This document shows, one piece after another, positions 1 to 64,000 of a DNA stretch of 64,000 nt. A program made the position numbers and the translations under genes. Source of the stretch: a virus. Below the pieces are notes generated by a model that worked only from the letters and a program-made list of their open reading frames with translations, ran no database searches and was not told the DNA's origin. The stretch lies in the IMG/VR virus record IMGVR_UViG_3300001199_000005, positions 64,001-128,000 of that record; one strand, written 5' to 3'. Position 1 is the stretch's first letter. Each line of letters opens with the position of its first letter.

Positions 1-69
1 CGTATGAGAATTTCGAAATCTCGTCCTCCTGGCCCCAAACCAGGTAATCTTCCTCTGATATAATACGCT
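1..69 (-). tRNA. tRNA-Pro(TGG), 3' end cut by window edge
   Basis: Anticodon arm CCTGG-TTTGGGG-CCAGG; T-arm GAGAT-TTCGAAA-TTCTC; acceptor AGCGTAT/ATACG.. Confidence 0.85.
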
Positions 70-79
70 ATATCTTGTG

Positions 80-151
80 TGTGCCTAATCAGGGATGAAC
101 TGACAACTACCTGTTCCACAAACAGGGGCTTTACATTAAGCTATAGACACC
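80..151 (-). tRNA. tRNA-His(GTG)
   Basis: G-1 plus acceptor GTGTCTA/TAGGCAC; anticodon arm CCTGT-TTGTGGA-ACAGG; atypical T-loop TTCATCC. Confidence 0.85.
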
Positions 152-169
152 ATATAACAAAAACTATTG

Positions 170-242
170 CGTTCAAGGTGGGTATCGAGCCCACTATCCT
201 TAGTTTAACAAACTACCGCTGTACCATACTAGCTTCTCGAAC
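170..242 (-). tRNA. tRNA-Asn(GTT)
   Basis: Acceptor GTTCGAG/CTTGAAC, G73; anticodon loop TTGTTAA; T-arm GTGGG-CTCGATA-CCCAC. Confidence 0.85.
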
Positions 243-249
243 AGGCATA

Positions 250-287
250 TAAACAAACAGCCCAACCTAGTTAAAGATTGGGCTGTT
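250..287 (-). terminator. Intrinsic terminator of attenuator 2, upstream of tRNA-Asn/His/Pro
   Basis: AACAGCCCAATCT-TTAACT-AGGTTGGGCTGTT followed by TGTTT; its 5' arm is also complementary to the end of the leader ORF. Confidence 0.85.
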
Positions 288-312
288 ATGAATTACTAAT
301 ACAATTGCAATA

Positions 313-378
313 TCATCCCACCCAATCTGATTGGTTATTAAGATGTTGCGGTTGTAAGAGAGAATTTATAAATTGCAT
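313..378 (-). CDS. Attenuator leader peptide MQFINSLLQPQHLNNQSDWVG (21 aa)
   Basis: ATG..TGA after an A-rich start context; Gln x4, Asn x3, Pro and His codons; overlaps the antiterminator strand AGATTGGG. Confidence 0.8.
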   Translation of the reverse strand: MQFINSLLQPQHLNNQSDWVG

Positions 379-393
379 TTGTTTTTGTTTAGT

Positions 394-1086
394 TTATTTG
401 GTTGCAGGGGTTGGATTTGAACCAACGTATCCTTTTGGGATAGCCAGCTTATGAGACTGGTGAACTAGGCCTCTATTCGACCCTGCTATATTTACAGATA
501 TTAATTTATTATCGTATTCCCAGTGATGATTAGGACAAAGAGCTATCAAATTATCAATATGATTAATAACACTTATTAAGGTATCATTTGAAAACTCAGA
601 TACTGCTTTTATATGAGCAATCTCAACGTGCTTATCGTATCCACAGATGTTACATTTCTTTTCTTTTAAAGATTCTTCAAAATTTAAACAAGCATCTTTT
701 CTTATCATAGTTCTAGCTGTTTGCCAATTTTTAGAATTTTCAAATTGAAATCCCTTTGTTCTATCCCCTACAACTCTTTTTATCTTTTTGCATTTTTTAT
801 TGCAAAACAAACTTGCGGTTGACTCAAAAACTGTACTACAATTTTTACATTGCTTTGGTTTCGATTTCCTTTTTGGACTGTTTTTATTATTAAGTTTAGC
901 GGCGCAAGAACGAGAACAAAATTTATTAATTCTATTTTTGTAATCTATTTTCTTATTACATAACTCACATCTTTTTGGATTATTGTTGTATTTTGTTTCA
1001 TTCTCTATAAGTTTGTGCTTATTTTGACATGATACATCACAGAATTTATTTTTAACTTCCTTCTTACAACAAAGACATTTATTCAC
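394..1086 (-). CDS. HNH homing endonuclease with N-terminal Cys-rich zinc-finger repeats
   Basis: CNICG..VEIAHI..NLIALCPNHHWEYD HNH core; repeated CxxC/FCxxxC motifs; sits in a tRNA cluster. Confidence 0.9.
   Translation of the reverse strand: MNKCLCCKKEVKNKFCDVSCQNKHKLIENETKYNNNPKRCELCNKKIDYKNRINKFCSRSCAAKLNNKNSPKRKSKPKQCKNCSTVFESTASLFCNKKCKKIKRVVGDRTKGFQFENSKNWQTARTMIRKDACLNFEESLKEKKCNICGYDKHVEIAHIKAVSEFSNDTLISVINHIDNLIALCPNHHWEYDNKLISVNIAGSNRGLVHQSHKLAIPKGYVGSNPTPATK
399..487 (-). tRNA. tRNA-Met(CAT), initiator-like, long variable arm, CCA encoded
   Basis: A1:A72 mismatch, A11:U24 pair, anticodon arm CCAGT-CTCATAA-GCTGG, T-arm GTTGG-TTCAAAT-CCAAC, 3' ACCA. Confidence 0.85.
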
Positions 1087-1104
1087 AGCTAGTATATTAT
1101 GCCG

Positions 1105-1136
1105 TAAATTTAATACATAAAAATTTAACTTCCAAA
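1105..1136 (-). promoter_or_regulatory. Bacteroidota-type promoter for the HNH/tRNA-Met/leader 2 block
   Basis: TTTG-N20-TAAATTTA, one mismatch to the TTTG-N19-21-TAnnTTTG consensus. Confidence 0.5.
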
Positions 1137-1156
1137 TATGAAATATTTGTAATTAG

Positions 1157-1227
1157 CACACCGTAGAAGAATCGAACTCCTATCGTTAAGGTTGGAACTT
1201 AACATGCTACCATTGCAACAACAGTGT
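1157..1227 (-). tRNA. tRNA-Trp(CCA)
   Basis: Acceptor ACACTGT/ACGGTGT, G73; anticodon arm TTAAG-TTCCAAC-CTTAA; T-loop TTCGATT. Confidence 0.88.
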
Positions 1228-1232
1228 ATTTG

Positions 1233-1322
1233 TGGGTGTAGAAGGAATCAAACCTCCGACGATTCTTTACGAATTTTGAATTTACAGTCCAATGCAGCCT
1301 AATCAACAGCTGTCGTACACCC
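1233..1322 (-). tRNA. tRNA-Tyr(GTA)
   Basis: Acceptor GGGTGTA/TACACCC, A73; anticodon arm TTGGA-CTGTAAA-TTCAA; long variable arm. Confidence 0.85.
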
Positions 1323-1329
1323 GTGTTAG

Positions 1330-1417
1330 TAGAGGGTAGGAGATTCCAACTCCTGATACGCTATTAACGTATTGCTTATTTTCAAGATAAGTTCTTCGTG
1401 ACATCCAGACACCCTCT
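1330..1417 (-). tRNA. tRNA-Ser(TGA)
   Basis: Acceptor AGAGGGT/ACCCTCT; anticodon arm CTTAT-CTTGAAA-ATAAG; long variable arm ATACG..CGTAT. Confidence 0.85.
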
Positions 1418-1421
1418 ATTT

Positions 1422-1509
1422 TGGCGGAGAAAGTAGCATTCGAAACTAATTCCTTTCAGAACACATTGTTTAGCAAACGAGTTTAAGCAACCTGCCTAAT
1501 TCATTCTCC
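1422..1509 (-). tRNA. tRNA-Ser(GCT), CCA encoded, imperfect stems
   Basis: GGAGAA../..TTCTCC-GCCA; anticodon loop TTGCTAA; long variable arm. Confidence 0.75.
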
Positions 1510-1513
1510 TTAT

Positions 1514-1551
1514 AAAACAAAAACACCTTCCTATTTACATAAGAAGGTGTT
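1514..1551 (-). terminator. Intrinsic terminator of attenuator 1, upstream of tRNA-Ser/Ser/Tyr/Trp
   Basis: AACACCTTCTTAT-GTAA-ATAGGAAGGTGTT followed by TTTGTTTT. Confidence 0.88.
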
Positions 1552-1572
1552 AGATTTTGTTTATACAATATT

Positions 1573-1632
1573 CTAGCAACCTTCTCGAAGAAAGTACCAC
1601 GAACTAGAATAAGTATAAGTAGTTGTTTTCAT
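1573..1632 (-). CDS. Attenuator leader peptide MKTTTYTYSSSWYFLREGC (19 aa)
   Basis: ATG..TAG just downstream of a consensus promoter; run TAT ACT TAT TCT AGT TCG TGG TAC; 3' end GAGAAGGTTG is complementary to the terminator 5' arm. Confidence 0.85.
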   Translation of the reverse strand: MKTTTYTYSSSWYFLREGC

Positions 1633-1650
1633 TTTAGCTTAATTTATTTG

Positions 1651-1682
1651 CAAATATAATTTGCTTAAGCTATACTTCCAAA
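1651..1682 (-). promoter_or_regulatory. Bacteroidota housekeeping sigma promoter of the tRNA operon
   Basis: Exact TTTG-N20-TATATTTG (-33/-7 consensus). Confidence 0.8.
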
Positions 1683-1684
1683 AG

Positions 1685-1921
1685 TTACCACATTTTTCTT
1701 GAACCACCACCACGACATTCGTGGTCGTTCCAAGCTCTTTTGAATGTGGCCCCTGGTTCCAGGATACGTGTTTGTTCATGCGGGCCAGCATGTGTACAGG
1801 CATCTCCCATTCTTCTTTCTGCACGTCTATGTTTACGTGACTTTAAGAATGGAGACGAAATGCTTACTCCACGATTAATTCTTCTTTGACTCCTTTTCGA
1901 GTCTGGACTTGGATTTTTCAT
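1685..1921 (-). CDS. Hypothetical basic protein
   Basis: ORF; ATG start MKNPSP preferred over the upstream TTG. Confidence 0.45.
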   Translation of the reverse strand: MKNPSPDSKRSQRRINRGVSISSPFLKSRKHRRAERRMGDACTHAGPHEQTRILEPGATFKRAWNDHECRGGGSRKMW

Positions 1922-2048
1922 ATTGCGAGATTTGTTTAATGATTTCTGACATTTCAATTAAGTGCTTAACCTTCTCATCGTTAGTCCTACACATCTTATA
2001 GGTATCGAAATACCTTTTTTCTTCCTTCTTCAGTTGTTGTATATCCAT
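1875..2048 (-). CDS. Hypothetical 57-aa coiled-coil protein (MDIQQLKKEEKRYFDTYK..)
   Basis: Manually translated ORF below the track cutoff, A-rich start context. Confidence 0.55.
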   Translation of the reverse strand: MDIQQLKKEEKRYFDTYKMCRTNDEKVKHLIEMSEIIKQISQYEKSKSRLEKESKKN

Positions 2049-2104
2049 ATTTTAGTTTATGGTTTTACTTTTTTGAAAATTTAGCACCCTCTTCTTTTAG
2101 TGTA

Positions 2105-2690
2105 AGTAGGGTCATGTAAGGTACGACTAAAGAGCTTTTAGGTTTTTAAACCAATTTGTCCTGTCCTTCGTCTTGTGATTATCAGGCTTCACTTCCTTAC
2201 GTTCTGCTGAGAACTCATTAGTATTGTAGCTGCAAAGTTAAGCTCTTTATTTGGTCCGCATTCCTTTCTCAAGGGAACAACACTTCTATCATTACTGAAT
2301 ATTCTTTACCTGCTTTACCTAAACGGTTGTTTATACAAAAGGTTCTGTACTAACTTCTTCACACTTACGCTTTTAACGCTTAATGCTTATAGCTTTCCTC
2401 CAAGCCAGTTCTCCTTAATCCTAGGAAGGTGGTCTGTCGATGGTCAGCACTATCAAGTCTAGGCTAATTACTCCTAGTTTGGTATAGAATATGCCCTGTC
2501 AATTCAAAGCTAGTATTTTTATACCTGTCAAGAGGCGGCCATCTGTAAGGATGTTCCTTTGATAAGTATGGGAATCAATGTTTAACCCAAGGTCTTTATT
2601 TATATTTGCAGTTTTCTATCCAGGTCCTAACTGGGTCAGTGTTGGAATATTTTCACAGCTTGCAGCTATGATAGGGATTGACAATAGAAA
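2105..2690 (-). ncRNA. Candidate large structured non-coding RNA (~580 nt)
   Basis: No ORF >=60 aa; crossing long-range helices 2660-2668/2227-2235 and 2240-2249/2128-2137; T-loop-like hairpin TCCCTTGAGAAAGGA; near tRNA cluster. Confidence 0.6.
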
Positions 2691-2701
2691 TAGGATACGT
2701 T

Positions 2702-3160
2702 TCATAGATTTATTTTTTTAAGTTTAATGACGGAATCTTTTTTAAACAGAATTTGAAATTCTGTTTCTATGTAGTCTGTTGCTTCAAGCTCGTAAGCAGT
2801 GAAGCCTATTTTCTCGAACTCCTTTATGTCTTCTTTGGAAAAGGCCATAAGGAGTTGGTCTAAAGATTTGTAAGCAAAGTAATATGGTCTGATTTCTTTA
2901 TAACTCATTTCACGTATCTTGGGGTCTTCAAACCTATTTGGAAATGCAGGGCTTGAATGCCTATATCTAATAGAAGCTTGATTTGGGTGCGTACTCAATA
3001 TATCAACACCGTCTACTACAGAGTTAAATGGACCTATTCCTGTCTGATTGTGCTCTATTCTGTATGCAGTAATTGGACTAGATATTAACCGCAGCGTTAT
3101 AGAATTAATTTTTGCATGAACAAATCGGAACATTTCCTGCCAGCGTATTAACTGTTCCAT
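2702..3160 (-). CDS. Hypothetical phage protein
   Basis: 152-aa ORF in a coupled minus-strand run. Confidence 0.7.
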   Translation of the reverse strand: MEQLIRWQEMFRFVHAKINSITLRLISSPITAYRIEHNQTGIGPFNSVVDGVDILSTHPNQASIRYRHSSPAFPNRFEDPKIREMSYKEIRPYYFAYKSLDQLLMAFSKEDIKEFEKIGFTAYELEATDYIETEFQILFKKDSVIKLKKINL

Positions 3161-3408
3161 GATAGAATTACTTTTGGGTCTATATTTAACTTTAAATAAA
3201 GCTTCTTCGCAAGTTCAATGTTAAGCTTGCGTTTACCTTTCAGGAATTTACAATGATTGACAACTAATCCTGTAATAGGACAAGTCAATCTGTTAGTGTT
3301 GATTAGGCCAATCCAATGATGCTTACGAAGAGATATTTTTTCCATTGTTTTACACTCTTCGATGAACTCTAGCAGAGTCAGGAATTCTAGTGGGACGTAG
3401 TTACCCAT
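3148..3408 (-). CDS. Hypothetical protein with HigA-like HTH C-terminal fragment
   Basis: C-terminus LKGKRKLNIELAKKLYLKLNIDPKVIL resembles the end of Xre/HigA HTH domains. Confidence 0.5.
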   Translation of the reverse strand: MGNYVPLEFLTLLEFIEECKTMEKISLRKHHWIGLINTNRLTCPITGLVVNHCKFLKGKRKLNIELAKKLYLKLNIDPKVILSWNS

Positions 3409-3586
3409 CTAATTTAACCGGCTCAACCTTTTTGACTAAGGATTCAAAATAAATCTCTAAAAGGTCTTCGGTGGATACACCGGCACATTCACCAGCAAAG
3501 TCAAACCATTCGTCTTGGTTAAACTTATTCTGGTAATACTTTCCTGTGGTCCATTGCATGAACGCACTAATTTCTTTCCTGCTCAT
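3401..3586 (-). CDS. Hypothetical protein
   Basis: Overlap-coupled ORF. Confidence 0.65.
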   Translation of the reverse strand: MSRKEISAFMQWTTGKYYQNKFNQDEWFDFAGECAGVSTEDLLEIYFESLVKKVEPVKLDG

Positions 3587-3980
3587 TTATTGTGATTATT
3601 ATGTTGTTATCATCTTTACAATCTACTGTAAAATATTTATTGTCGGATATAAATACGTCGTATATTAAATCATATTTATCTTCACCCCATTTTGAAAATA
3701 GAATTCTATACCCATCTTCAAAAGTTTTAAGGTTAATGCTATTAATAACACGCATCTTATCTACACCTAAATACATTACAGGCGGTTTACCATGCTCAGA
3801 TAGTCCCCAAGAACATTCTTTATTATCTTTTCTAAAGACGTAGTCAATTGGGTTATAGCTGCTTAGAAATATGCTTTCATAATCCTCTATTTCCTTTTTA
3901 CCACAGTGCTCTAAACAGGTTCTCTTGAACCCTTTGTCTACTAGATACTGTTGAAATCCGGGCAGTTTAGTTGTTTCCAT
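3567..3980 (-). CDS. Hypothetical protein
   Basis: Overlap-coupled 137-aa ORF. Confidence 0.75.
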   Translation of the reverse strand: METTKLPGFQQYLVDKGFKRTCLEHCGKKEIEDYESIFLSSYNPIDYVFRKDNKECSWGLSEHGKPPVMYLGVDKMRVINSINLKTFEDGYRILFSKWGEDKYDLIYDVFISDNKYFTVDCKDDNNIIITINEQERN

Positions 3981-4185
3981 TAATTTGTTTTATATTTGAA
4001 TTGCTTGGGTTGGTAACAACATCATCACTGTTACCTACATATACTAGTCTGCTATCGGAATCAGACGGCTCTTCGTCTAAAGGGACCATTTCGGTGTACT
4101 CAATACCATTAATGAAGTGGGGTGCTATTCCTAAGTGCGTCAAGATTCCCTTCTGGTTAACTGAGTGATAAAATTTTTTTAACAT
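3967..4185 (-). CDS. Hypothetical protein
   Basis: Overlap-coupled ORF. Confidence 0.65.
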   Translation of the reverse strand: MLKKFYHSVNQKGILTHLGIAPHFINGIEYTEMVPLDEEPSDSDSRLVYVGNSDDVVTNPSNSNIKQINGNN

Positions 4186-4552
4186 GTGGTATGGTAATAT
4201 GCTGATAATCTACACAAACAATTTTATTCTTCTTAATACCCAGGTTGCGGTCATGGCAATCTGGAACAATACTTAAGTTATAAAATTCTTGCAGTTGGTT
4301 AACTGTACAAACACCGACTTTTGGTATATACTCTGATACTAGTATCCTATCATTAAATAGACTTAAATATGGTTTAGCAAACCAACCAAGATACTGCGGA
4401 ACATCTCTCTGTACTCTTCTGTAGTTAAGAAGTTCTGCTCTATTGTTAGCACCATCATAGAATTTGTCTATTTTAATGACAAACAATTTACAGACAATGA
4501 CATCTCTATATGAGCCGCTTTTGCAAAGCAGCAACTTTAGTAGTTTAATCAT
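4157..4552 (-). CDS. Minimal protein-kinase-like protein
   Basis: VIKI (beta-3 Lys), NRAE (alpha-C Glu), DCHDRNLG catalytic loop, VCVDY (DFG-like). Confidence 0.65.
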   Translation of the reverse strand: MIKLLKLLLCKSGSYRDVIVCKLFVIKIDKFYDGANNRAELLNYRRVQRDVPQYLGWFAKPYLSLFNDRILVSEYIPKVGVCTVNQLQEFYNLSIVPDCHDRNLGIKKNKIVCVDYQHITIPHVKKILSLS

Positions 4553-4849
4553 TTAGTAGTCTATTATGTCTTCGTGACTTCCGATGATACCGCCACAATC
4601 ATGTAAGAATAATGCAAAATCATGTGTGCCAAAGCGCACATCGTCTTGAAAGACGAGGACAATTTTGTTATCCAGGATTTGCATTATCTCCGTATTATCG
4701 GTGATATAATCGTAGACTTGTCTAGGGACTTTTAATCCCCGTATGCGTGCTGTTTCATATGGGTAGTACCCAATAAGGGTAAAACCGTCTAGTTTGATGG
4801 GAGTTTCGAGCTCTCTAAAGCTCTTGGCTCTTTTTGTTTTCTCTGCCAT
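4553..4849 (-). CDS. Hypothetical protein
   Basis: 98-aa ORF in operon. Confidence 0.7.
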   Translation of the reverse strand: MAEKTKRAKSFRELETPIKLDGFTLIGYYPYETARIRGLKVPRQVYDYITDNTEIMQILDNKIVLVFQDDVRFGTHDFALFLHDCGGIIGSHEDIIDY

Positions 4850-4858
4850 ATTAATTTT

Positions 4859-5080
4859 TTAATTAAAACCAGTTATCCAATCTCTCATCTGGCGCTCAGT
4901 TGAGAGAAAACCGCTGAATAATAATATTGCACCTAATTGTAAAGCGGAATGCCCTTGTGTTTCAGGATGTTTATTCATGTCACTTAGAAAACTTGCGAAT
5001 GCTTCGCTTGTATTACCAGCATCCACATATTCCAACGCTCTCTGTTTGCACCATTCAAGGTGTTCTTTTCTTGTTGCCAT
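4859..5080 (-). CDS. Hypothetical phage protein
   Basis: 73-aa ORF in operon. Confidence 0.75.
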   Translation of the reverse strand: MATRKEHLEWCKQRALEYVDAGNTSEAFASFLSDMNKHPETQGHSALQLGAILLFSGFLSTERQMRDWITGFN

Positions 5081-5086
5081 GTTGAA

Positions 5087-5266
5087 TCAATTTAAATATT
5101 TTTCAGGTATATCTAAATAACCCCACTGTATATGAATAAAAGGAAGTATAAGGTTATGTGTTATTCCTGAAATTTCATGTATATCTGTGGAATAAATAAC
5201 CTTCCAGTACCCAAGTCCAATTATTAAACGAGGGTCAAATTTAAATGTCTTAAGTCTCTTTGTCAT
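5087..5266 (-). CDS. Hypothetical 59-aa protein (MTKRLKTFKFDPRLIIGLGYW..)
   Basis: Manually translated; fills the gap between neighbouring ORFs. Confidence 0.55.
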   Translation of the reverse strand: MTKRLKTFKFDPRLIIGLGYWKVIYSTDIHEISGITHNLILPFIHIQWGYLDIPEKYLN

Positions 5267-5507
5267 TTTTCATTAGGGGTTTAGGTAATGGTTGCCAATG
5301 TGTGGCTAAGAAATGGTGTGATACACTGCTTGAGGGGCTACTCATTAGACGTTTACCGTCGTAAGACATAGCTAGTGCTATTTTAGCACCGTTTTCATCA
5401 CCATCTGGAAAGTACCCTATTACAAGTGTTTCTATCGGCGGCATCTTCTTAGTGACGGGTATCCATCTACTGAAGAGAGAGGCGATAAAGTTTATTATCT
5501 TCTTCAT
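5250..5507 (-). CDS. DUF551-like phage protein
   Basis: WIPVTKKMPP...THWQPLPKP signature. Confidence 0.75.
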   Translation of the reverse strand: MKKIINFIASLFSRWIPVTKKMPPIETLVIGYFPDGDENGAKIALAMSYDGKRLMSSPSSSVSHHFLATHWQPLPKPLMKNDKET

Positions 5508-5809
5508 GTCCGAAATTAGTGGTTATGTTTTATAAAAAGCTTTACGAAATTCCACAATAGGGTCTAAATTGTTATCTATTGCGTACCAGATGACTTCAAT
5601 CGTATCATCTATATCTATGCCTTTAATCTCTGCTATTGAGATTAGTAGCAATGCTACTAAAGTATTCATAATTTAGTTGTCTAGTTTTACTATGATTTAA
5701 ATTGTGATATTAAAAACAGTCTTTGTATTAGTAAATGAAATAGCCGCAGTGCATAACACCACGGTTATCTGATTAACCAATTAACATATCTTTAACCCTA
5801 ATGGGTAAT

Positions 5810-6075
5810 TAGTTCAAAACAAAATCCGCCACCGCTAACCAAGCATAAGCTGGTTCAATCGAGCGATGACGGATTGTTTCTCGGCAGCAGCATGGTACAT
5901 GCATCATGGGCTCTAAGGCCATAGGTGTAAACTGCGTGCGGAGGTTTTTGGGCCCTTGTACTTCGGGACCTTTTTTACTGGCTTGTATTACTAATGCGAC
6001 GCCAGATTTTTTCATTCAATGCGCATAGACCAGATTCACCGAGGCTCAACAAAGTTAAGTCACGGCATAAGGTTC
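5810..6075 (-). ncRNA. Candidate structured RNA downstream of tRNA-Lys
   Basis: GC-rich hairpins with A-rich linkers, ending in AATCCGTCATCGCT..AGCGGTGGCGGATT plus TTGTTTTG. Confidence 0.4.
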
Positions 6076-6088
6076 TGATTTACCTTCG

Positions 6089-6161
6089 TGCAACATACAG
6101 GGTTCGAACCTGTGACCCTCTCATTAAGAGTGAGATACTCTACCAACTGAGCTAATGTTGC
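6089..6161 (-). tRNA. tRNA-Lys(CTT)
   Basis: Canonical cloverleaf: GCAACAT/ATGTTGC, TCTCA-CTCTTAA-TGAGA, TTCGAAC. Confidence 0.95.
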
Positions 6162-6267
6162 TTGAGGGCGTTACCCTCGTTTCTTTTTGTTTGTCAGCCG
6201 TATACTCTAATTACTTACCCATTTATGTAAAAACAATGTAAGTATACAATCATCATCAGGTATTTTG

Positions 6268-6341
6268 CCGCAGCTAAGGGAATCGAACCCATAGTAACCA
6301 ACCCAAGACTCTTAGACTTTCGTAGCATCTTGTAGCTGCGG
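6268..6341 (-). other. tRNA-like element: acceptor stem and T-arm, no normal D or anticodon arm
   Basis: CCGCAGCTA/TAGCTGCGG stem, GGG-TTCGATT-CCC T-arm, internal CAAGAT..GTCTTG stem. Confidence 0.55.
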
Positions 6342-6391
6342 GTTTGTTTGTGTACTTTAAAATGTTAGGCTGCCACTTCACTAGCTCCGAC

Positions 6392-6739
6392 TTACCCAGT
6401 CCCAGAGCTACAAAGATTATCATATCTTACAGGGTATACATACTTTTTCCCCGGCACTTCAACATAACTATGAAAGCCATCTGTGTCTTTTATAAAACAC
6501 ACTACTTTGGACTTGTTATGTTTCTGTGGGAATAGTCGTGATTCTGTATCGAATTCGATAAATAGCTCGTCTTGAAGTACGAGTTCAAAATCGTTTTCAA
6601 ATTCCTCTACAGGGTAATTTTTTCCCGTATTGGCTACTACGCAACTATCGTTTTTACTAACGATAACTCCTACAATGAGGAGATTTGTTCTGTGTTGCCC
6701 GTCAACATGGACAAGCTGCTTTTCTTTTGTCTTTATCAT
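6392..6739 (-). CDS. Hypothetical protein
   Basis: 115-aa ORF, A-rich start context. Confidence 0.7.
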   Translation of the reverse strand: MIKTKEKQLVHVDGQHRTNLLIVGVIVSKNDSCVVANTGKNYPVEEFENDFELVLQDELFIEFDTESRLFPQKHNKSKVVCFIKDTDGFHSYVEVPGKKYVYPVRYDNLCSSGTG

Positions 6740-6947
6740 TTTTTTTTAGTTTGGTTAAATTAAAAAAGCTGGCATGGTTGTACAGTCCACGCCAGCCACA
6801 TTCTGCCTTATAATGGTGACTAGTCCACTCAATGGGACTACATTACAACTACCCCCTGCTTTTGGATAAATGGGTCTAACCAACCCTGGCATTTGTTGTG
6901 GGTATATTTCAACCCGGTTTTTGGGCTTTCGCCCGTTCTAAAATAAA

Positions 6948-7101
6948 AAACAAGGAAGTACCCGAAGGTAGAAGCTCTTCCTTGTTTATGAGGTCCTTAT
7001 GCGTTGACCTATTAAGGTCAACCGCTCGACCAGGAATGTGCTGCCCTGCACTAGCGTAGAACAAAAGGAGTACCGTAAAGGTAAGAGAATCTCCTTTGTT
7101 T
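6948..7101 (-). repeat. Two copies of a bulged hairpin motif
   Basis: AAACAAGGAAG..TACC-TTCG-GGTA-CTTCCTTGTTT (6948-6988) and AAACAAAGGAG..TACC-TTTAC-GGTA-CTCCTTTTGTT (7060-7101). Confidence 0.65.
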
Positions 7102-7323
7102 AAAGTCAGGCTGGCCCGTAATATTTTATTACAGCATCGGCGGCCTGTGGTTTTTGTGCTCTCCTACACACGATGGGGACAGTAGCGAGTGCCAAATAAT
7201 GTGGCTCCGCTTTTTTGAGTTTTTCCCCGTGCTTTCCAGCATGCTCGGCTTAGGCTTTATTTATACTCATGCCACCGACTATATGGGTTTATGAGTTATC
7301 CTGGGGTTTTACTCCAGGATATT

Positions 7324-7554
7324 TTAGGTAAAGATTACAAGTGGTTCATCTTGTTCCAGAATTACAACATTGATATACCCGTTATCACCAGATAGGTTCA
7401 TGTTATATTCCGACAAAGTTGCACCATACGCTTCAATTTCATTTGTTGCATGTGACCACCATGCTTGTTGTGAAACCCAGGAACAAGCTTCCTGAAAATT
7501 GTTGTGGTTAAACACTACTGTTGCATGTAACCACCCTGAAAATACTAGTATCAT
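7324..7554 (-). CDS. Hypothetical protein
   Basis: 76-aa ORF. Confidence 0.6.
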   Translation of the reverse strand: MILVFSGWLHATVVFNHNNFQEACSWVSQQAWWSHATNEIEAYGATLSEYNMNLSGDNGYINVVILEQDEPLVIFT

Positions 7555-7674
7555 ATATAATGGTTAATGTTAGTACTATTATGTAGAGATTAAACTACAA
7601 TACTGTAAAATTTCTAGTTTTTACATTCATGCAACTGTGTTTTTCACACCCAGCATTATATTGTAGTTTTAAAG

Positions 7675-7860
7675 TTAAACTTTTGGTCGTTGTTTGCGCA
7701 CGGGCTGTACGTTGTGGAAGCCTTTTTGTAAGATTCCATTGCCCTCTTTGTTCCAAATGTGGCTGCCATCTGGTCGTGTCTTGTGCGCCAAGCCCATTGC
7801 GTTCAAAATGTCCATGTTTGGCTTTTGAGTGCGCCTGCTTCTTCTTTGTGATGCTTTCAT
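7675..7860 (-). CDS. Hypothetical basic protein
   Basis: 61-aa ORF after an A-rich leader. Confidence 0.6.
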   Translation of the reverse strand: MKASQRRSRRTQKPNMDILNAMGLAHKTRPDGSHIWNKEGNGILQKGFHNVQPVRKQRPKV

Positions 7861-8001
7861 TGTTGTTTTCAGTTGATTTTGAGTTGATTTTTATTTATTC
7901 TTCAAGACTGTAGCGAATATTTGATGTGTTGGTATGAAAATTTTTAGCTTTTTACCACTTTCACTTGTTTTATTGTGATACCCTTGTGGCAAGGGAAGAA
8001 C

Positions 8002-8292
8002 TTAGCGCTTGGTTACTTCATAAGTGAAGATGCCAGTGGCAAATTCACGTGTTTGGTCGCAAGACAACTCTTTACCACGCATCTCTGCGGGAATATCAAG
8101 CTGGACCTCGGTTACACTGGCGCAATGACAGGCCAAGTGCATTGGCAATACGCCTAGCACATGCTTATTGTCAAGTACAGTCGCGTCTACAACGTGTTGC
8201 AATACAATTCCCCAAGTGTATCCTTCTTGCGAAAGATATTCGAGGAGTCCACTATGGCGTGACACTACTATATCTACAAATTTTGTTTCCAT
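8002..8292 (-). CDS. Csx16 (Cas_VVA1548)-like protein, putative ring nuclease
   Basis: VSRHSGLLEYL..V..GVLPMHLA..LDIPAEMRGKELS matches the Csx16 motifs as I recall them; likely start METKFV at 8292. Confidence 0.7.
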   Translation of the reverse strand: METKFVDIVVSRHSGLLEYLSQEGYTWGIVLQHVVDATVLDNKHVLGVLPMHLACHCASVTEVQLDIPAEMRGKELSCDQTREFATGIFTYEVTKR

Positions 8293-8513
8293 CACATTCT
8301 GGCATTTTAATGGGTTAGCCTTCCCGTTTAGTTTTAGTGCTCTTTCTATTAAGCCCAGCATCAGGGCACCACAGTCATCAGAAACTATTTATTTTTACGT
8401 GCTGTGGACACGACATACTTAGTATGCGAAAAATAAGCCCCATTGTACACTTGCCTTATTACAGGCTGGGCTTTTTATTTATCCTCGTCGTGCATACGAG
8501 GTTTTCCATCCGC

Positions 8514-8795
8514 TCAGTATAGAGGTTCTTCGACCTCATCTACTAACTCAATATAGCCTAATCGAAGGCCTTTATCGAGTTCAGCAAGACTCTTTTGAGT
8601 CCAAGCCTCTGGACGAGACTGAACATCAGCAGGAGTCTGCTGGTCGCGGATTGCCCTATAGACCCACTCTACTGAGTGGTCTTCTGGGCGTCGTAATCCT
8701 TTCGCCATATAGATTAATGTTAGGAAGCCGGTTGTCCAGTTATCAGATATTGCGATTGCAATAGCAAGATTCGAACTCACATCTCTCCCTAACAT
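8514..8795 (-). CDS. Hypothetical protein
   Basis: ORF; the real start may be MAKGLRR at 8708. Confidence 0.55.
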   Translation of the reverse strand: MLGRDVSSNLAIAIAISDNWTTGFLTLIYMAKGLRRPEDHSVEWVYRAIRDQQTPADVQSRPEAWTQKSLAELDKGLRLGYIELVDEVEEPLY

Positions 8796-8797
8796 TG

Positions 8798-8871
8798 TCT
8801 TCCCTACAAGATTCGAACTTGTAACCTACTGCTTAGAAAGCAGACGCTCTATCCAGTTGAGCTAAGGGAAG
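8798..8871 (-). tRNA. tRNA-Arg(TCT)
   Basis: Canonical cloverleaf: CTTCCCT/AGGGAAG, CTGC-TTTCTAA-GCAG, TTCGAAT. Confidence 0.95.
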
Positions 8872-8926
8872 ATGTTGGTGCTCCGTTTGAAGACTTTACA
8901 CATTTGCAAGGTGTGCTACCTCTTTT

Positions 8927-8949
8927 CTCTCTTAGTCAGACTAAGAGAG
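8927..8949. repeat. Perfect inverted repeat, 11-bp arms
   Basis: CTCTCTTAGTC-A-GACTAAGAGAG with no U-tract on either strand. Confidence 0.7.
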
Positions 8950-8966
8950 TAGGGCAAAGTTATGCC

Positions 8967-9344
8967 CTATTTGCTGACCGAGTCTAACCTGACTCGGTGC
9001 ATAATCCTACTGACTGGGTAGGTCAGCAATGTCGCAGGATTGAATCCTGCAGCATACATCTCTAACCAGTCTTTGGTTGTCAACTCACGTCCTTGAACGT
9101 GAACATGGCAACCGTGTAGGACTATGTTCCAGTGCGGAGCGTACTGGTCCACTAGCTCCTGATAGGAGCCTGTAGCAATACGCTTCCGCCCTTCGACAGC
9201 GAACCAGACCAGCAGCTTGGGAGCTTCCAAGTCCAACTTTTGTTGGAGTTCTTGGCGTTGCTCTGCAGCCAGAACCAATTGCTGAGTGCGAGTCAGCTTT
9301 TGGTCCTGTTTGCTGGTCTGGTTCAATCCCAGACTAATAAGCAT
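8967..9344 (-). CDS. Hypothetical protein with Gln-rich N-terminus
   Basis: Likely start MLISLG inside the 194-aa track ORF. Confidence 0.6.
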   Translation of the reverse strand: MLISLGLNQTSKQDQKLTRTQQLVLAAEQRQELQQKLDLEAPKLLVWFAVEGRKRIATGSYQELVDQYAPHWNIVLHGCHVHVQGRELTTKDWLEMYAAGFNPATLLTYPVSRIMHRVRLDSVSK

Positions 9345-9559
9345 ATATATTTGTTTTATGTGGACTATCTCAATCACCACATCGTATTCCCCATGATTAC
9401 GGATTTTGCCGTATGGGAACTTATCTGTCGTCCAGACAGGAATGCTTTTATGTCGCTTAGGATTATTAACGACAACCCCTAACACAGTATGCAGATTCAA
9501 TATGAGTGCTGCATAAACTAAGCTGTGCTTTTTACTACCATGTAGGGACACCTTTCGGC

Positions 9560-25064: not shown

Positions 25065-25634
25065 ATGGATTTTTTAGAATATAGCCTTGATACTGGTATT
25101 ACCATAAAAGATTCTAATTATTTATTAGTGGCTGAGTTTAATGCTCTAGGCGCTGTTGAACGTAATAAATCTAAAGATGATAAAACTGGTACTAAGAGAT
25201 ATAGAATGTTGAAAGAACTAACATATATTTATATGCTAGAGCATTATAAATCGCCTTTTAGTAAAAGCCCGTTAAAGGATAGAGAAGAAGGTGCATTAGC
25301 TGCTATTGAGCACTTACCAGGATTTTTTGAACTTGATGAGGCTGTTGAAGCTGCGAGGAAGAAGTTCGTAGAACTTCAGGATACCAAGTCTTTACAACTA
25401 CTTAAAGCTGCCTATTACGCTGTTGACCAGGTAATAGGCTACTTTACTAAATTAGATTTGTCTAAATTAGATACTTTTAATAAACCTATATACAATGCTA
25501 AAGATGTTATAACAAACATTGCTAATTCTAGTAAACTTATTGATGGTTTACAACAACTTGAAGATAGAGTTAAACAAGACTTATCTGTTAAATCAAGTTT
25601 GCGTTCAGATGCAGAAGGAGGATTTTTTGATTGA
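25065..25634 (+). CDS. Putative terminase small subunit
   Basis: Helical protein coupled directly upstream of TerL. Confidence 0.5.
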   Translation: MDFLEYSLDTGITIKDSNYLLVAEFNALGAVERNKSKDDKTGTKRYRMLKELTYIYMLEHYKSPFSKSPLKDREEGALAAIEHLPGFFELDEAVEAARKKFVELQDTKSLQLLKAAYYAVDQVIGYFTKLDLSKLDTFNKPIYNAKDVITNIANSSKLIDGLQQLEDRVKQDLSVKSSLRSDAEGGFFD

Positions 25635-27739
25635 AGAAGATTAAATGGGATGTTACTGGAAAGAAAATTAAGTACTTTGACCCGGAGTTGTCTTATGAGA
25701 TAACCGGATACCGTCCTATTGCCCAAGATAAAAAGTTCAACCCGGATTGGTTCAGAGAAGCTGCTATTGAAAAGGATAAGACTGGTAAGTACACTCCACT
25801 GATTCGGAATACTGTGTCTTGGGGAAAGTTTTGGATAGAAGAAAGAAGAAGATGTATAGACGGTTACGAGGTTAATGGTTATAGAATTACTGGACATCAT
25901 TACTTTTTTCTAAATTATTATCCAATACCTTCTATTATTGAAGTCAATGGCAAGAAAAGAAGAGAAGTAACATTTCCTAGATTTATTGACGTTCAGTACG
26001 AATACTTCCACTATTTAGATTTATGCACTCATTTAAATAAGGACGCTTGCCTATTAAAAGCCCGTGGTCTAGGTTTCTCGCATATAGCAGCTGCTATTGG
26101 TGTAAATATTTATAACCATACAAGGGATTCAAGGTCTATGTTTACTGCCTTTGATGAGGATTACTTAATTAAGGAAGGCGTGCTATCTAAAGCTTGGGAA
26201 GCTTTAGATTACTTAAACCAAGGAACTGATGGCGCATTTAAACATTTACGTCAAAAAATAAATTCTAATTTCCATAAAAGAGCATCTAAAGTAGATAAAT
26301 CTGGTGAAGAACTAAACTCTTCTTGGAAATCAGAAATTATAGGTCAAGTTGTGGATGAACCTAGAAAGCTTAGAGGAGCTCGTTGCGAAGTCGTATTCTT
26401 TGAAGAAGGAGGTGTTTATAGAAATTTAATTGATGCTTTTATTAAGGCAGAAGCTTTAGTTGAAGTACTCGGCGATAAGTTTGGGCTAAGAGTTGTTTGG
26501 GGTACTGGTGGTGAAGGTGGTGCTTTTATCGAAGGTTTAGAGAAAATATATCTATCACCCGAAAGTTATAATATATTACCTCTAAGACATAACCATACTA
26601 CAACTAAAGAATATGTTTACACTTCATTCTTTATACCAGCTTATAGAATGGTGGCTGAGTTCATGGATTATAGAGGTATAACAGATGAAATAAAAGCCAG
26701 AGAATATTATGATGCTAAGAGAATTACATATAAAAATAAACCACTTGACTTGGCTATGCACGTTGCTGAGTATTGTTATACGGCGGAAGAAGCTCTTTCA
26801 CAAAGAGGAAATACAATATTTAATAAAGCTAAGCTGCTAGCTCAAGAAGTAGAAGTAAAAATTAATAAAACTACACCTGCTCCTGAAGTTGGTAGGCTCG
26901 AATGGGAATATATTGATAATACTAAAAAGGTAAAAGGCGTTAAGTTTATACCAGACCCTTCTGGAAAAGTACTCATTGTAGAACACCCACTCAAAGAAAA
27001 CGGTGCGTCAGTTGAGAATCTATATGTGTCTGGTATTGACTCTATTGATGCGGGTGCAGAAGCTACTGTTGTAGGTGATGACGGTTCTAAGTTTTGTCAA
27101 GTAGTTAAAAAAAGAACCTACGGGTTAAGTGGAGATAAGTATGTTTGTCTTTACTTAGATAGACCTGACGACGAAAGGGACTGTTATGATACATCATTAA
27201 AGATACTACATTATTACTCTTGTTTAGCTAACCTAGAAGATACAAAACGCTCAATAATTGGCTATTTTAGAGATAGGGGGCAATATTGGAGATTGATTAA
27301 AAGACCAACTATTGCTACCGCAAGCGCTGAAGCAAAGCAGCGTTCTAATTTAATTGGTACACCAGGCTCAACTAAAATTATACATCATCAGAATGACTTA
27401 ACGAAGGCTTATGTTGAAGATTTCTCTCAAAATATATATTTTGAGATAATGTTACAACAATTACTTAACTATTCCTTTGAAAATAAGTCAAAATTCGATA
27501 TAGTTGCAGCTATGGGTATGGCTGAGATATATGATGAAGACATTACCGGTGTTACACCCATACCTTCAACTAAACTTGATGATGAATGGGTTGATGTTGG
27601 GTACTATACAGATTCTAGTGGAATTAGAAGATACGGACCAATTCCAAAAAATCTTAATATTCATAATTTATCAAAAAGTCCAGAAGCACCGATTAAATTT
27701 GTAGACTTATTAGAAAATAAAATCGAATATGAATGGTAG
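25631..27739 (+). CDS. terL: Terminase large subunit
   Basis: LKARGLGFS Walker A, VFFEEGG Walker B, GTGG, GIDSID nuclease, KFDIVAAMGMA. Confidence 0.93.
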   Translation: MKKIKWDVTGKKIKYFDPELSYEITGYRPIAQDKKFNPDWFREAAIEKDKTGKYTPLIRNTVSWGKFWIEERRRCIDGYEVNGYRITGHHYFFLNYYPIPSIIEVNGKKRREVTFPRFIDVQYEYFHYLDLCTHLNKDACLLKARGLGFSHIAAAIGVNIYNHTRDSRSMFTAFDEDYLIKEGVLSKAWEALDYLNQGTDGAFKHLRQKINSNFHKRASKVDKSGEELNSSWKSEIIGQVVDEPRKLRGARCEVVFFEEGGVYRNLIDAFIKAEALVEVLGDKFGLRVVWGTGGEGGAFIEGLEKIYLSPESYNILPLRHNHTTTKEYVYTSFFIPAYRMVAEFMDYRGITDEIKAREYYDAKRITYKNKPLDLAMHVAEYCYTAEEALSQRGNTIFNKAKLLAQEVEVKINKTTPAPEVGRLEWEYIDNTKKVKGVKFIPDPSGKVLIVEHPLKENGASVENLYVSGIDSIDAGAEATVVGDDGSKFCQVVKKRTYGLSGDKYVCLYLDRPDDERDCYDTSLKILHYYSCLANLEDTKRSIIGYFRDRGQYWRLIKRPTIATASAEAKQRSNLIGTPGSTKIIHHQNDLTKAYVEDFSQNIYFEIMLQQLLNYSFENKSKFDIVAAMGMAEIYDEDITGVTPIPSTKLDDEWVDVGYYTDSSGIRRYGPIPKNLNIHNLSKSPEAPIKFVDLLENKIEYEW

Positions 27740-61700: not shown

Positions 61701-64000
61701 GGGTGACCTTAATTTATCTACAATAAAACAATTCTTTGATACATTTTCATTGTTGAAATTAAATCAATCAATTAATAAAGAACTAGAGGCTGAGTTTACC
61801 TCTTTATTTGAAGCTCTTAAAATGAAATTAGAAGCTTCTAAGCAAATTATACCAGATGCTGATTATAATAATAAGTCTATACTAGAGAGTGCTTTAAAAT
61901 TAACTGAAACTTTTAACACCGAACGAAAAAAATTAAATAAAAACCGTAAAAAGAGTACAAAAGAATTTCAATATGAAAGGATGTTACTATTAGATTCTGT
62001 TTATATACAGCTTGAGGAATTATTAAAGAAACAAATTCTGCAAAATTCTGATTTTTCTACATTAACTCTACTATTTGATGATGATACAAGTAGAATGGTG
62101 GACTTATTGAATAAGTTTCAAACTTATAGGAACAACAAAAACTTAGACGGTATCAATAAGGATGAATTCGAAGCATTAAAAGAATTTTATAATAGCCTAG
62201 AATATAAACTATCTGATTTCTTTACACAATTAACTGTTGATTATGGCAATGGTCCAGAGCTTGATATAATATTCATTAAATATTTAATAGATAAATTACC
62301 AGTTTCTACTTATAATAGAAGTATTGATAAAACTATTGCTAATCTTAATCAAAAAGATGATAAAGGTAACTTATTACCAAGCTTTGTACTATATAGTGAG
62401 TATGAACAACAAAAGCCTAATGTAAGTTTAGGTTTAGCTCTGTATAATATTAATGAGGATGGATTATACACAACTTCGTTATTTAATGAAGTTACTAAAT
62501 TAATTGATTCCACCTTTAATGAAATAATAAATGCTGATGGGACTACGACACTAGTACCTAAAGAAAATGTAGATAAATTAGACGAAGCTGATATTCTTTT
62601 ACATAAAATAAATACAAAGCTAGCAATGGCACACGCTTTGGCAATTGATAGTAGATACCAAAAAGATATTGTAGCTAATGATAGTCAATACACCCCTTTC
62701 AGCCCTAGTAAAGAAACAGATATATCTGGAGTAATAATCAATCTAACAAAATTAAAACTGTACTTGGAAGGTAAAATGACAGCAATGGCTGGAGAAAGAA
62801 CTAAAAGAGAAACTCACGATATACGTGTAGGAGCCAGGTTTATACAAAGTAGAACCAAATTTATACTAGAACTACAGGAAATACTTGGTGAGAATAAAGA
62901 AAGAGATATATTGATTGAAGAATTAATAAGTAGTGATAAATTAAACGTAGCAGATTTAATAGCAGACCCTCGCTATGATAAAGGCGGTCCAACATTCTCG
63001 GATAGAATTTACAAAGCGTTAGCCATTGTCTTAAAGCTAGAAACATTATTAGCCGATGAATTAAAAACTAAAACTAGTAATTCAGCAGATTTTGATACTT
63101 TCTTTGGTAGCGATAATTTCAAGGGTTATTTCTCTTTCAACTTAAATAAAAATATTGGTCTAACCGCGGGAGTGGATGATTCCTATTTATATATGCAGGA
63201 TTCTGTAACTTCAAAAGGCCTAGCAGGGCCAACAGACCCTAGAACTAATGAAGAAAGATTTAACTTTTATTTACACCTATTAAGAGGTGGTAATAGAAAT
63301 TTACCAAATCATTTCTTAGATATAGTAAATAAAATAAATAAAACAAATGCAAAAAGTCTTAATGATTTGAACAGTCCTATTACTAGTATAGAACAATTCT
63401 TAGTGGTAAGACAAGGTATGAGCTTTTTGACAATGGATGCTACAGAGCTTCGTAATACAGAAGCTTTAAAAACTAAATTTTACACTAATACAGATATAAC
63501 TTCAAACTTTAAGGTAGGCGCACACCAAACATTAAATAACTTAGAAGAATTTGCTCCAGCTGGTCACTTAGGTATTGTGCCGCAATCATTATACATACCT
63601 GGTATGCCAAGTGCTGGTAAGACTACTTTCATAGTTACATACTTGACAACCTTCTTTACGGAGTACTATAAAGGAAAAAAAATAGCAATATTTACTCAAG
63701 GCGAGAATGAGGATATACTTAGTACTCTGCACGAAACGTTGCAAAATAATGGGTTAGATTTTACGTTTATTAAATCTACGGATAATATATCATTAGATAG
63801 TTTTGATAATATTTTAATATTAACTGATGAATTTACATTAGTTAATGAAGTTGCTGATTATATATTCAAAGTTAGTGAAGATAACCGCGATGATGCTTCT
63901 TTTGTTAATTCTTTACAAAAAAATGTAGATAAGGTAAGAAGAGTATTTATAGGCGACCATTTACAAAAAACTAATGTAGACTCAGTTTCAAACACTGATA
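58792..64000 (+). CDS. Giant virion protein (>1736 aa, truncated) with SF1 helicase domain; expected neighbour or carrier of virion RNA polymerase domains
   Basis: Open from ATG 58792 to window end, so absent from the track; Gly/Ala-rich hydrophobic segments ~59.5-60.6 kb; GMPSAGKTT (63601), ILTDEF, VFIGDHLQ. Confidence 0.8.
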   Translation, partial: MNEDLDFGLLYTNMAQAGLEPSPLNVVGMLNFQKEKDKNNALKIVFDEESKENVRKKHGEEYLKTVQESYNNYIANADALKHKQVFATYGYLDNRISKHFRPESNIPYKTNDVPIYMSWNGTTNPIYIEHPEKIASLHNTQYIKGNSLVDFGTRTINDVASTALNHNEGLAALATYEDRSLIDDEIGNTLKKAIKQKEVDKNTIYTDKDDKFIWKIYPVGSTEAIKGQIRGIWGDRTIQQDNVLSEMGQSLWDLALNFADAGMLTAKALHTVTKFPDILTGGYSDFIASMTQTKPKNIIDGTFNAYFNYSQALKSASSKEDEGDWATPTNITKMVVDGTGQIAATILTGGLAGGGTKFVQGTRWFGTKALPKFGTDTLGKQASKHFSTEFAGKTLAELNARRAGYGLNMALASSTGYKEARSQGMNEASSLGLAALYGAALFATERFTGSQWIQKIGNKNFREQTAKYVINAVKNEADVLGISLKQAEARFANNTNGKFMGLVTGLASTIYKTSKWMGRRPESWMVAITKPGVAESIQDGSEGALNYWSKHLINQVQDDAKFHLGDITDSVFPGMVGGGLVGNIAGGFRYGYSRRDIKESLEKLPDDIRKKELINLIVFDNTEHERFNTMIDVVRELGQEGAFGYEHFDSTLSSSASKETESHNKFVEEMLIQEIYHIKGIYEISKSKFPQFSKQELVKTVSNMLGKETSSKIANLIGSDGLSTSIEANANYLFGEAMMAAVKKDSLVKEMVTENLLKAAPSMMIDVDDIVAFNGKFYGVKKNDVVVNLKDEERLRLEQAFNNSYQNYQKLVDSNSHAITAYTDKLVLRNEVKKKLDLLQGDSKLRKELIAELNNINKDIDTNRDELIQIFGSESILNKAIDYNTATKLESELKDVENGRVRFYDNLTKLLLFKNDNKDLNIPTNPFVVSSYRRDKQLELEVHNKLIEELNQKNLDLTKEKKLEFEKLLKGDLNLSTIKQFFDTFSLLKLNQSINKELEAEFTSLFEALKMKLEASKQIIPDADYNNKSILESALKLTETFNTERKKLNKNRKKSTKEFQYERMLLLDSVYIQLEELLKKQILQNSDFSTLTLLFDDDTSRMVDLLNKFQTYRNNKNLDGINKDEFEALKEFYNSLEYKLSDFFTQLTVDYGNGPELDIIFIKYLIDKLPVSTYNRSIDKTIANLNQKDDKGNLLPSFVLYSEYEQQKPNVSLGLALYNINEDGLYTTSLFNEVTKLIDSTFNEIINADGTTTLVPKENVDKLDEADILLHKINTKLAMAHALAIDSRYQKDIVANDSQYTPFSPSKETDISGVIINLTKLKLYLEGKMTAMAGERTKRETHDIRVGARFIQSRTKFILELQEILGENKERDILIEELISSDKLNVADLIADPRYDKGGPTFSDRIYKALAIVLKLETLLADELKTKTSNSADFDTFFGSDNFKGYFSFNLNKNIGLTAGVDDSYLYMQDSVTSKGLAGPTDPRTNEERFNFYLHLLRGGNRNLPNHFLDIVNKINKTNAKSLNDLNSPITSIEQFLVVRQGMSFLTMDATELRNTEALKTKFYTNTDITSNFKVGAHQTLNNLEEFAPAGHLGIVPQSLYIPGMPSAGKTTFIVTYLTTFFTEYYKGKKIAIFTQGENEDILSTLHETLQNNGLDFTFIKSTDNISLDSFDNILILTDEFTLVNEVADYIFKVSEDNRDDASFVNSLQKNVDKVRRVFIGDHLQKTNVDSVSNTD

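Follow-up and report, generated by a model that had tools for sequence, protein, structure and literature searches.

Leader-peptide attenuation is a textbook mode of control for amino-acid operons. In the trpL, hisL, leuL and thrL leaders, as well as the multivalent ilv leaders, a short translated leader with control codons is combined with three alternative helices, namely 1:2, 2:3 and 3:4, and with an intrinsic terminator just 5' of the regulated genes, such that the antiterminator becomes available when a ribosome stalls on the control codons and is blocked once the ribosome has reached the stop codon. The same architecture and the same logic are predicted for the phage element described here. 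A survey from 2010 recorded leader-peptide systems as being known at that time only in Proteobacteria and Actinobacteria, and added examples from Firmicutes (PMC2965389). Our full-text literature searches recovered no report of leader-peptide attenuation of tRNA genes or of phage genes.

The element is a spacer located at 398-243 on the minus strand of a 64,000-nucleotide stretch of DNA (hereinafter the window), which corresponds to bases 64001-128000 of an IMG/VR record of 152,878 bp that is approximately 85% complete. A preliminary description of this DNA had proposed an attenuator in this spacer and had predicted from it a tRNA-Gln gene. The attenuator finds support in the predicted helices, the ribosome geometry, the context of the start codon, a sister unit and recurrence in other phages, whereas the tRNA-Gln prediction fails. 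We estimate a probability of roughly 0.7 that the spacer functions as a ribosome-mediated leader-peptide transcription attenuator within a phage tRNA operon, where it would gate the genes for tRNA-Asn, tRNA-His and tRNA-Pro, and probably two tRNA-Leu genes.

A TerL match (window 25631-27739), along with matches to portal and major capsid proteins, assigns the source to the crAss-like phages. The Crassvirales are a dominant phage group of the human gut. The closest TerL in GenBank is 46% identical to that of the present phage. The spacer sits in a minus-strand tRNA operon, which has the following order:

1682-1651, minus strand: match to a host-type promoter
1632-1573, minus strand: 19-codon ORF, followed by a terminator at 1551-1522; promoter match, leader and terminator together constitute a sister unit (1522-1682) at the operon head
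next, minus strand: degenerate tRNA-like gene, tRNA-Ser(UGA), tRNA-Tyr and tRNA-Trp
1086-394, minus strand: HNH endonuclease ORF, running through the tRNA(CAU) with a long variable arm
487-399, minus strand: the upstream neighbour of the spacer, a tRNA with a CAU anticodon, a long variable arm and an encoded CCA ending at 399 (ARAGORN and Rfam)
398-243, minus strand: the attenuator-like spacer
242-170, minus strand: tRNA-Asn(GUU), the first gene that would be gated (Rfam, 41.3 bits; ARAGORN at a lowered threshold)
150-79, minus strand: tRNA-His(GUG) (ARAGORN and Rfam)
69-1, minus strand: tRNA-Pro(UGG), the final 4 nt of which lie past base 1
G000 63985-63067, past base 1: second HNH gene, tRNA-Leu(UAG) and tRNA-Leu(UAA)

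Immediately upstream of the spacer the preliminary description had placed a tRNA-Met; a CCA-ending tRNA with a CAU anticodon and a long variable arm does indeed stand there. The Asn, His and Pro tRNAs that had been named downstream were all detected by Rfam or ARAGORN. The HNH ORF (1086-394) crosses the tRNA(CAU) without encountering a stop and terminates at 396-394, 15 nt 5' of the leader ATG.

Several other features of this region deserve mention in their own right. The tRNA(CAU) at 399-487 (minus) combines its type-II-like variable arm and encoded CCA with an A1/A72 mismatch, and a CAU tRNA with a similarly long extra arm was observed in an unrelated phage contig (L006 1725-1812). The operon is split by two different HNH homing-endonuclease genes (G000 63335-63985, which lies past base 1 and encodes 216 aa, and window 500-1086 minus), neither of which has a terminator of its own, so that both would be co-transcribed with the tRNAs. 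The operon head contains two non-canonical tRNA genes (window 1329-1510 minus), both missed by the Rfam model: the degenerate long-arm tRNA-like gene (1510-1426), in which the anticodon arm allows either GCU or CGU to be read, and tRNA-Ser(UGA) (1417-1329), which has the T-loop TTGGAAT. Just 5' of the operon promoter there is a G+C-rich island (window ~1640-1870 minus) in otherwise AT-rich DNA; its only coverage is by overlapping short ORFs, it has no Rfam match, and it could be a structured RNA. A further tRNA-like gene (6265-6340 minus), called by ARAGORN only at a lowered threshold, shows a good acceptor and T arm together with an odd D/anticodon region, and is situated about 100 nt 5' of tRNA-Lys(CUU).

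The spacer itself can be divided into the following elements:

398-379, minus strand: A-rich stretch leading up to the ATG of the leader, predicted to be free of base pairs (MFE fold)
378-313, minus strand: leader ORF of 21 codons plus TGA
354-331, minus strand: Gln Pro Gln His Leu Asn Asn Gln, a run of putative control codons
366-291, minus strand: predicted helix 1:2, the upstream hairpin that would form first and hold the antiterminator strand (-14.9 kcal/mol)
328-275, minus strand: predicted antiterminator, helix 2:3 (-19.8 kcal/mol)
287-246, minus strand: predicted intrinsic terminator with a 13-bp stem and a 6-nt loop (287-256, -20.3 kcal/mol) and a T-rich tail (255-246)

The leader at 378-313 is the sole ATG-initiated ORF of at least 20 codons within the spacer, the HNH frame merely ending at 394. 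Its core run, CAA CCG CAA CAT CTT AAT AAC CAA (354-331), starts 45 nt past the CCA of the upstream tRNA, in agreement with the preliminary description. The pairing proposed there likewise holds up: AGATTGGG (328-321) is perfectly complementary to CCCAATCT (282-275) in the terminator 5' arm, and the flanking ATGA/TCAT and ATTGC/GTAAT extensions are present in the predicted fold. By means of this pairing the 3' end of the ORF, the last five codons of which constitute the upstream strand of the antiterminator, would engage the loop-proximal part of the terminator 5' arm, and the nascent RNA could adopt three mutually exclusive helices, 1:2 (366-291), 2:3 (328-275) and 3:4 (287-256). The hairpin at 287-256 ranks first among the terminator-like sites in window 1-9500, and the 3' end of the terminator falls a few nucleotides short of tRNA-Asn. 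The context of the leader ATG scores 3.9, compared with means of 3.6 for the starts of long ORFs and -3.0 for ATGs overall; relative to long-ORF starts it lies at the median, and among ATGs as a whole at the 97th percentile. Neither 398-379 nor the preceding tRNA contains the host-type promoter motif, which is not enriched in the window (5 copies found vs 4.9 expected); the copy before the sister unit is notable only for its position. The spacer is not repeated within the genome. Rfam near-hits to VrrA and PyrR (E 0.2-0.3) were dismissed as chance.

The full spacer folds with -38.3 kcal/mol, far better than shuffled sequences (z = -4.1). This stability would also suit an RNA element that acts independently of translation, be it a small stable RNA or a tRNA- or metabolite-binding switch that uses the same helices, and phage tRNA clusters can encode other stable RNAs, a known example being the tRNA cluster of phage T4. 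We regard such an element as most improbable: no Rfam family, the T-box included, matches the spacer at threshold, and across the wider family of units described below the amino acids of the ORF track the tRNA cargo, a correspondence for which a sensor made only of RNA would have no need.

In equilibrium folds of the full transcript the terminator wins at every ribosome position (probability ~0.96), which implies that any switch must be kinetic and co-transcriptional, like that of classical attenuators. Since equilibrium folding cannot show switching of this kind, we folded instead a nascent RNA that ends at the terminator loop and thus lacks the 3' arm, and masked a ribosome footprint extending from -15 to +12 around the A site. 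The MFE structure of the nascent RNA is the antiterminator (328-275, -19.8 kcal/mol), with a pair probability of 0.97. As long as the A site is at one of codons 1-13, the masked RNA keeps the 8 loop-proximal nucleotides of the 5' arm sequestered with a probability of 0.98; this value drops to 0.72 at codon 14 and 0.28 at codon 15, and is at most 0.09 for a ribosome at codons 16-22, the last of these being the stop. Codons 9-13 are the last stall positions that leave the antiterminator free, and the mask results suggest that the Pro-Gln-His-Leu-(Asn) codons are the last pauses which would both melt helix 1:2 and spare the antiterminator strand. The two adjacent Asn codons lie at or beyond the switch boundary, and stalls on them would hence work poorly.

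On the attenuator model, RNA polymerase would come in from upstream, and a ribosome would load at the ATG at 378, entering de novo at the unpaired A-rich segment or else reinitiating once it has terminated at the HNH stop, 15 nt to the 5' side of the ATG. In the event of fast decoding, the ribosome would reach codons 16-22 and cover 328-321, in which case the terminator would form and transcription would stop just 5' of tRNA-Asn. A ribosome moving slowly over the Pro/Gln/His/Leu/(Asn) run would instead keep helix 1:2 melted and leave 328-321 free, and this strand could capture the terminator 5' arm before the 3' arm is made, with the result that the tRNA genes would be transcribed. The outcome would be a negative feedback, in which the phage tRNAs are supplied when their codons are read slowly.

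A strong stem that forms at equilibrium whatever the ribosome position is also what one would expect of a constitutive leaky intrinsic terminator, which does no more than adjust how much of the distal tRNAs is made or close the HNH/tRNA(CAU) transcript, the ORF and its codons being fortuitous; a 21-codon ORF is by itself unremarkable in AT-rich DNA. Comparisons with shuffled and natural sequences bear on this explanation from both sides. The 5'-arm sequestration amounts to 0.74, against a mean of 0.38 for dinucleotide shuffles of the 111 nt upstream, only 0.5% of which reach the observed value, and an 8-nt complement of the terminator arm arose in none of 2000 shuffles. When three things are required jointly, namely a short ORF, loss of the switch with the ribosome at the stop, and cargo codons within the five codons before the boundary, the combination turns up in 1 of 3000 shuffles for the Asn/His/Pro set and in 0 of 3000 for the set that includes Leu, values that are optimistic as the thresholds were set post hoc; even so, this rarity speaks against a fortuitous ORF. 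When the 19 strong natural terminators of the genome are ordered by arm sequestration, an ordinary terminator comes first and the two from the operon come second and third, which lends the leaky-terminator explanation some support. Against it we also count the leader ATG context, the presence of a second unit of the same design in the same operon, and the fact that elsewhere the switch words, where downstream tRNAs are present, always mark codon-matched leaders before tRNA blocks. On balance a simple leaky terminator appears unlikely.

The leader-to-cargo codon match of the 398-243 element is modest. Asn, His and Pro together make up 25% of the leader vs 11% in the background (p ~0.05); their best 5-codon window has p ~0.09, and with Leu included the overall fraction has p ~0.17. 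The cognate residues (Asn, His, Pro, Leu) account for 8 of the 20 codons after the ATG, and all four of them are found inside five codons, an arrangement shared by 0.8% of a set of 622 spurious short ORFs from the genome. The Pro, His, Leu and Asn codons at the switch boundary match the downstream tRNAs (p 0.008 to 0.05), and the four Gln codons are without a matching gene; both the modesty of the match and the unmatched Gln are points that a leaky terminator would accommodate.

The preliminary description had correctly counted four CAA codons in the leader, Gln being its commonest codon, and had predicted on these grounds a tRNA-Gln(TTG) gene just past base 1. What lies there instead is the last 4 nt of tRNA-Pro, followed by the HNH gene, tRNA-Leu(UAG) and tRNA-Leu(UAA). 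ARAGORN found no tRNA-Gln in the DNA adjoining base 1, and searches of the whole 152,878-bp record with ARAGORN, with the same program at a threshold lowered to 85% and with the Rfam tRNA model likewise detected none. Abundant residues that lack a counterpart in the cargo are also seen in other units: the sister leader is 22% Thr, yet the record has no tRNA-Thr, and one unit of the megaphage LR756501.1 is 20% Ser, ahead of a block for which no tRNA-Ser is called. In light of these cases the Gln codons argue only weakly against function, and the rule of predicting a tRNA from the commonest leader codon is unsafe. The unmatched Gln codons may report on a host Gln-tRNA, may have a role in helix 1:2 or may be a relic.

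The sister unit, which lies 1.2 kb upstream, repeats the three-helix layout and boundary logic of 398-243 and has a stronger codon match. Its 19-codon leader contains a Tyr-Ser-Ser-Ser-Trp-Tyr run, and the genes for tRNA-Ser(UGA), tRNA-Tyr and tRNA-Trp are found after the degenerate tRNA-like gene. All six of six matched codons are recovered in 1 of the 622 spurious ORFs, which is the sister ORF itself.

Comparable units were observed in LR756501.1, a 735-kb megaphage genome in GenBank that carries 65 tRNAs sorted by amino acid. On the 5' side of each of four tRNA blocks, a promoter-like motif is followed by an A-rich start, a short ORF and a terminator. The first leader is Leu-rich and precedes five tRNA-Leu genes, and the remaining ones, which feature Met/Gln/Ile, Thr/Gly/Ala/Val/Pro/Arg and Lys/His/Phe/Trp, respectively, precede tRNAs for the same amino acids. 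When these four units are pooled with the two from the window, the true assignment of leaders to blocks is the best of 720 permutations. In all six units a 6-9-nt complement of the terminator arm is found in the last part of the ORF, and the predicted arm sequestration falls right past the run of matched codons; the 398-243 unit has the weakest codon match among the six.

The LR756501.1 units align with the window element and have a set of switch words in common with it: GATTGGG at the ORF 3' end, CCCAATC in the terminator 5' arm, and TTGGG plus a T-run in the 3' arm. Used as a search pattern, which contains no codon or tRNA information, these words matched 11 IMG/VR loci, 8 of which have downstream sequence containing tRNAs. 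In all 8 a tRNA block follows and the ORF is written in the amino acids of that block; examples include Gln runs 5' of Gln tRNAs, Leu runs 5' of Leu tRNAs and a leader bearing Ile/Asp/Asn/Cys 5' of the tRNAs for those residues. Within the 64 kb of the window the pattern matches only at 327-255, with 0 matches expected, although it was built in part from this very element. We found no published description of these short-ORF/terminator units of LR756501.1 and IMG/VR.

Two further observations pertain to the megaphage. The promoter-like word shared by its units (L114, L116, L117 and L119, reverse complement) consists of an A-run, GAC, a T-run and, about 8 nt later, ATATATA. Some of its tRNAs seem to bear introns, as judged from Rfam matches of 111-118 nt.

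Membership of this GATTGGG/CCCAATC class of tRNA-block attenuators is the best explanation for the 398-243 element, which is atypical in being intra-operon and promoterless and in reading the shared words in another frame. It is conceivable that it is a decayed member, in which the helices were kept while the leader ceased to match its cargo following rearrangement (such as HNH insertions or loss of a tRNA-Gln), leaving a regulation that is weak or general. Such decay would be consistent with the Gln-rich leader in a record devoid of tRNA-Gln, given that Gln-run units of the family precede Gln tRNAs, with the departure of the reading frame from the usual family ending, and with the interruption of the operon by two HNH genes. 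The gene order of relatives, Gln-Met-Leu-Met-Leu, also differs from the order seen here (Met, attenuator unit, Asn-His-Pro, HNH, Leu-Leu), and on account of that order the element might be the relic of a Gln-type unit. Nevertheless, the three helices and the start context are intact and the Pro, His, Leu and Asn codons are positioned exactly at the switch boundary, and we consequently deem decay quite improbable.

No close relative that could serve for a conservation test was found by megablast and blastn against phage records, and exact tRNA words searched in IMG/VR retrieved unrelated phages or no match. A neighbouring 262-aa protein has one homologue, 29% identical, and the best TerL relative, 57% identical, is on an 11.7-kb contig. 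MT835470.1 (46% TerL identity) contains no tRNAs, and MT835539.1 (42% TerL identity) has a different tRNA cluster without such units. Neither strict nor relaxed terminator searches uncovered a matched leader in 20 tRNA regions of IMG/VR relatives (357 tRNAs, 176 gaps). As a negative control, 25 terminator-like hairpins before tRNA blocks of crAss-like relatives (41-46% TerL identity) yielded 0 matched leaders, indicating that our pipeline does not find such units everywhere and that the design is absent from the nearest available relatives.

These relatives display other features around their tRNA genes. Hairpins with a conserved loop (GTGAAGAT or GTGAGAG type) occur 7-14 nt 5' of several tRNAs in crAss-like relatives (L009 3900-7100; L097, L098, L100, L101, L111), and MT835539.1 has a repeated hairpin 5' of two tRNAs; these pre-tRNA hairpins are candidate processing or promoter signals. 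Several relatives carry suppressor-type tRNAs with UUA and CUA anticodons.

If the attenuator reading is correct, phage tRNA genes would be subject to feedback from the rate at which their own codons are decoded, and would not be constitutive cargo. This would bear on the question of why phages carry tRNAs, i.e. codon compensation versus replacement of host tRNAs that are degraded or cleaved in infection. The present instance would place the design in the Crassvirales and would show that such a gate can be located within an operon, and not only at its head. More broadly, we consider it a slightly better than even bet that large phages of Bacteroidota-type hosts, including the crAss-like phage studied here, possess a tRNA-on-demand circuit, wherein checklist ORFs gauge decoding speed and open terminators before the matching tRNAs; in the present case two such gates would act in series in one operon. 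A circuit of this type would provide a homeostatic tRNA supply, and it might also respond automatically when host tRNAs are depleted or anticodon-nuclease defences come into play. As the element is small (~150 nt) and self-contained, it is directly testable in a cell-free system.

The proposed attenuator can be set against several described forms of regulation. It has in common with T-box riboswitches a decision between terminator and antiterminator that reports tRNA supply for translation-related genes. However, the T-box binds uncharged tRNA directly, by way of a specifier loop and the conserved T-box sequence, and does so without a ribosome, whereas the phage element comprises only ~110 nt, and the T-box covariance model of Rfam (Stem I with the specifier loop, T-box sequence) gave no match in it at the gathering threshold or at E up to 5. 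The ermC and cat leaders of resistance genes resemble it in that stalling of a ribosome within a short leader ORF alters the RNA structure further downstream, but they sense a drug-bound ribosome and mostly exert translational control, unlike the phage unit with its codon-specific content and intrinsic terminator.

The differences from the trpL-type leaders are of another kind. Those leaders regulate biosynthetic or synthetase genes and rely on a long run for one amino acid, while the phage unit would regulate phage tRNA genes and its leader contains several amino acids, each once or a few times. The 398-243 unit is moreover intra-operon and promoterless, with a tRNA immediately 5' of it. The trpL-type systems are enterobacterial, whereas the presumed host of this phage belongs to the Bacteroidota, and the spacer has no Rfam similarity to those leaders.

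Closest to the present element are the units of LR756501.1 and IMG/VR (L114-L119, L121-L131). Each of these follows a phage promoter-like motif and heads its block, in contrast to the internal position of 398-243, and most of their leaders end in Ile-Gly-stop on ATT GGG TGA, whereas 398-243 uses another frame, with the stop 6 nt later. With these exceptions, the switch words, the A-rich start and the predicted ribosome-position geometry are common to both, both stand directly 5' of a tRNA block on the same strand, and in both the amino acids of the leader follow those of the block.
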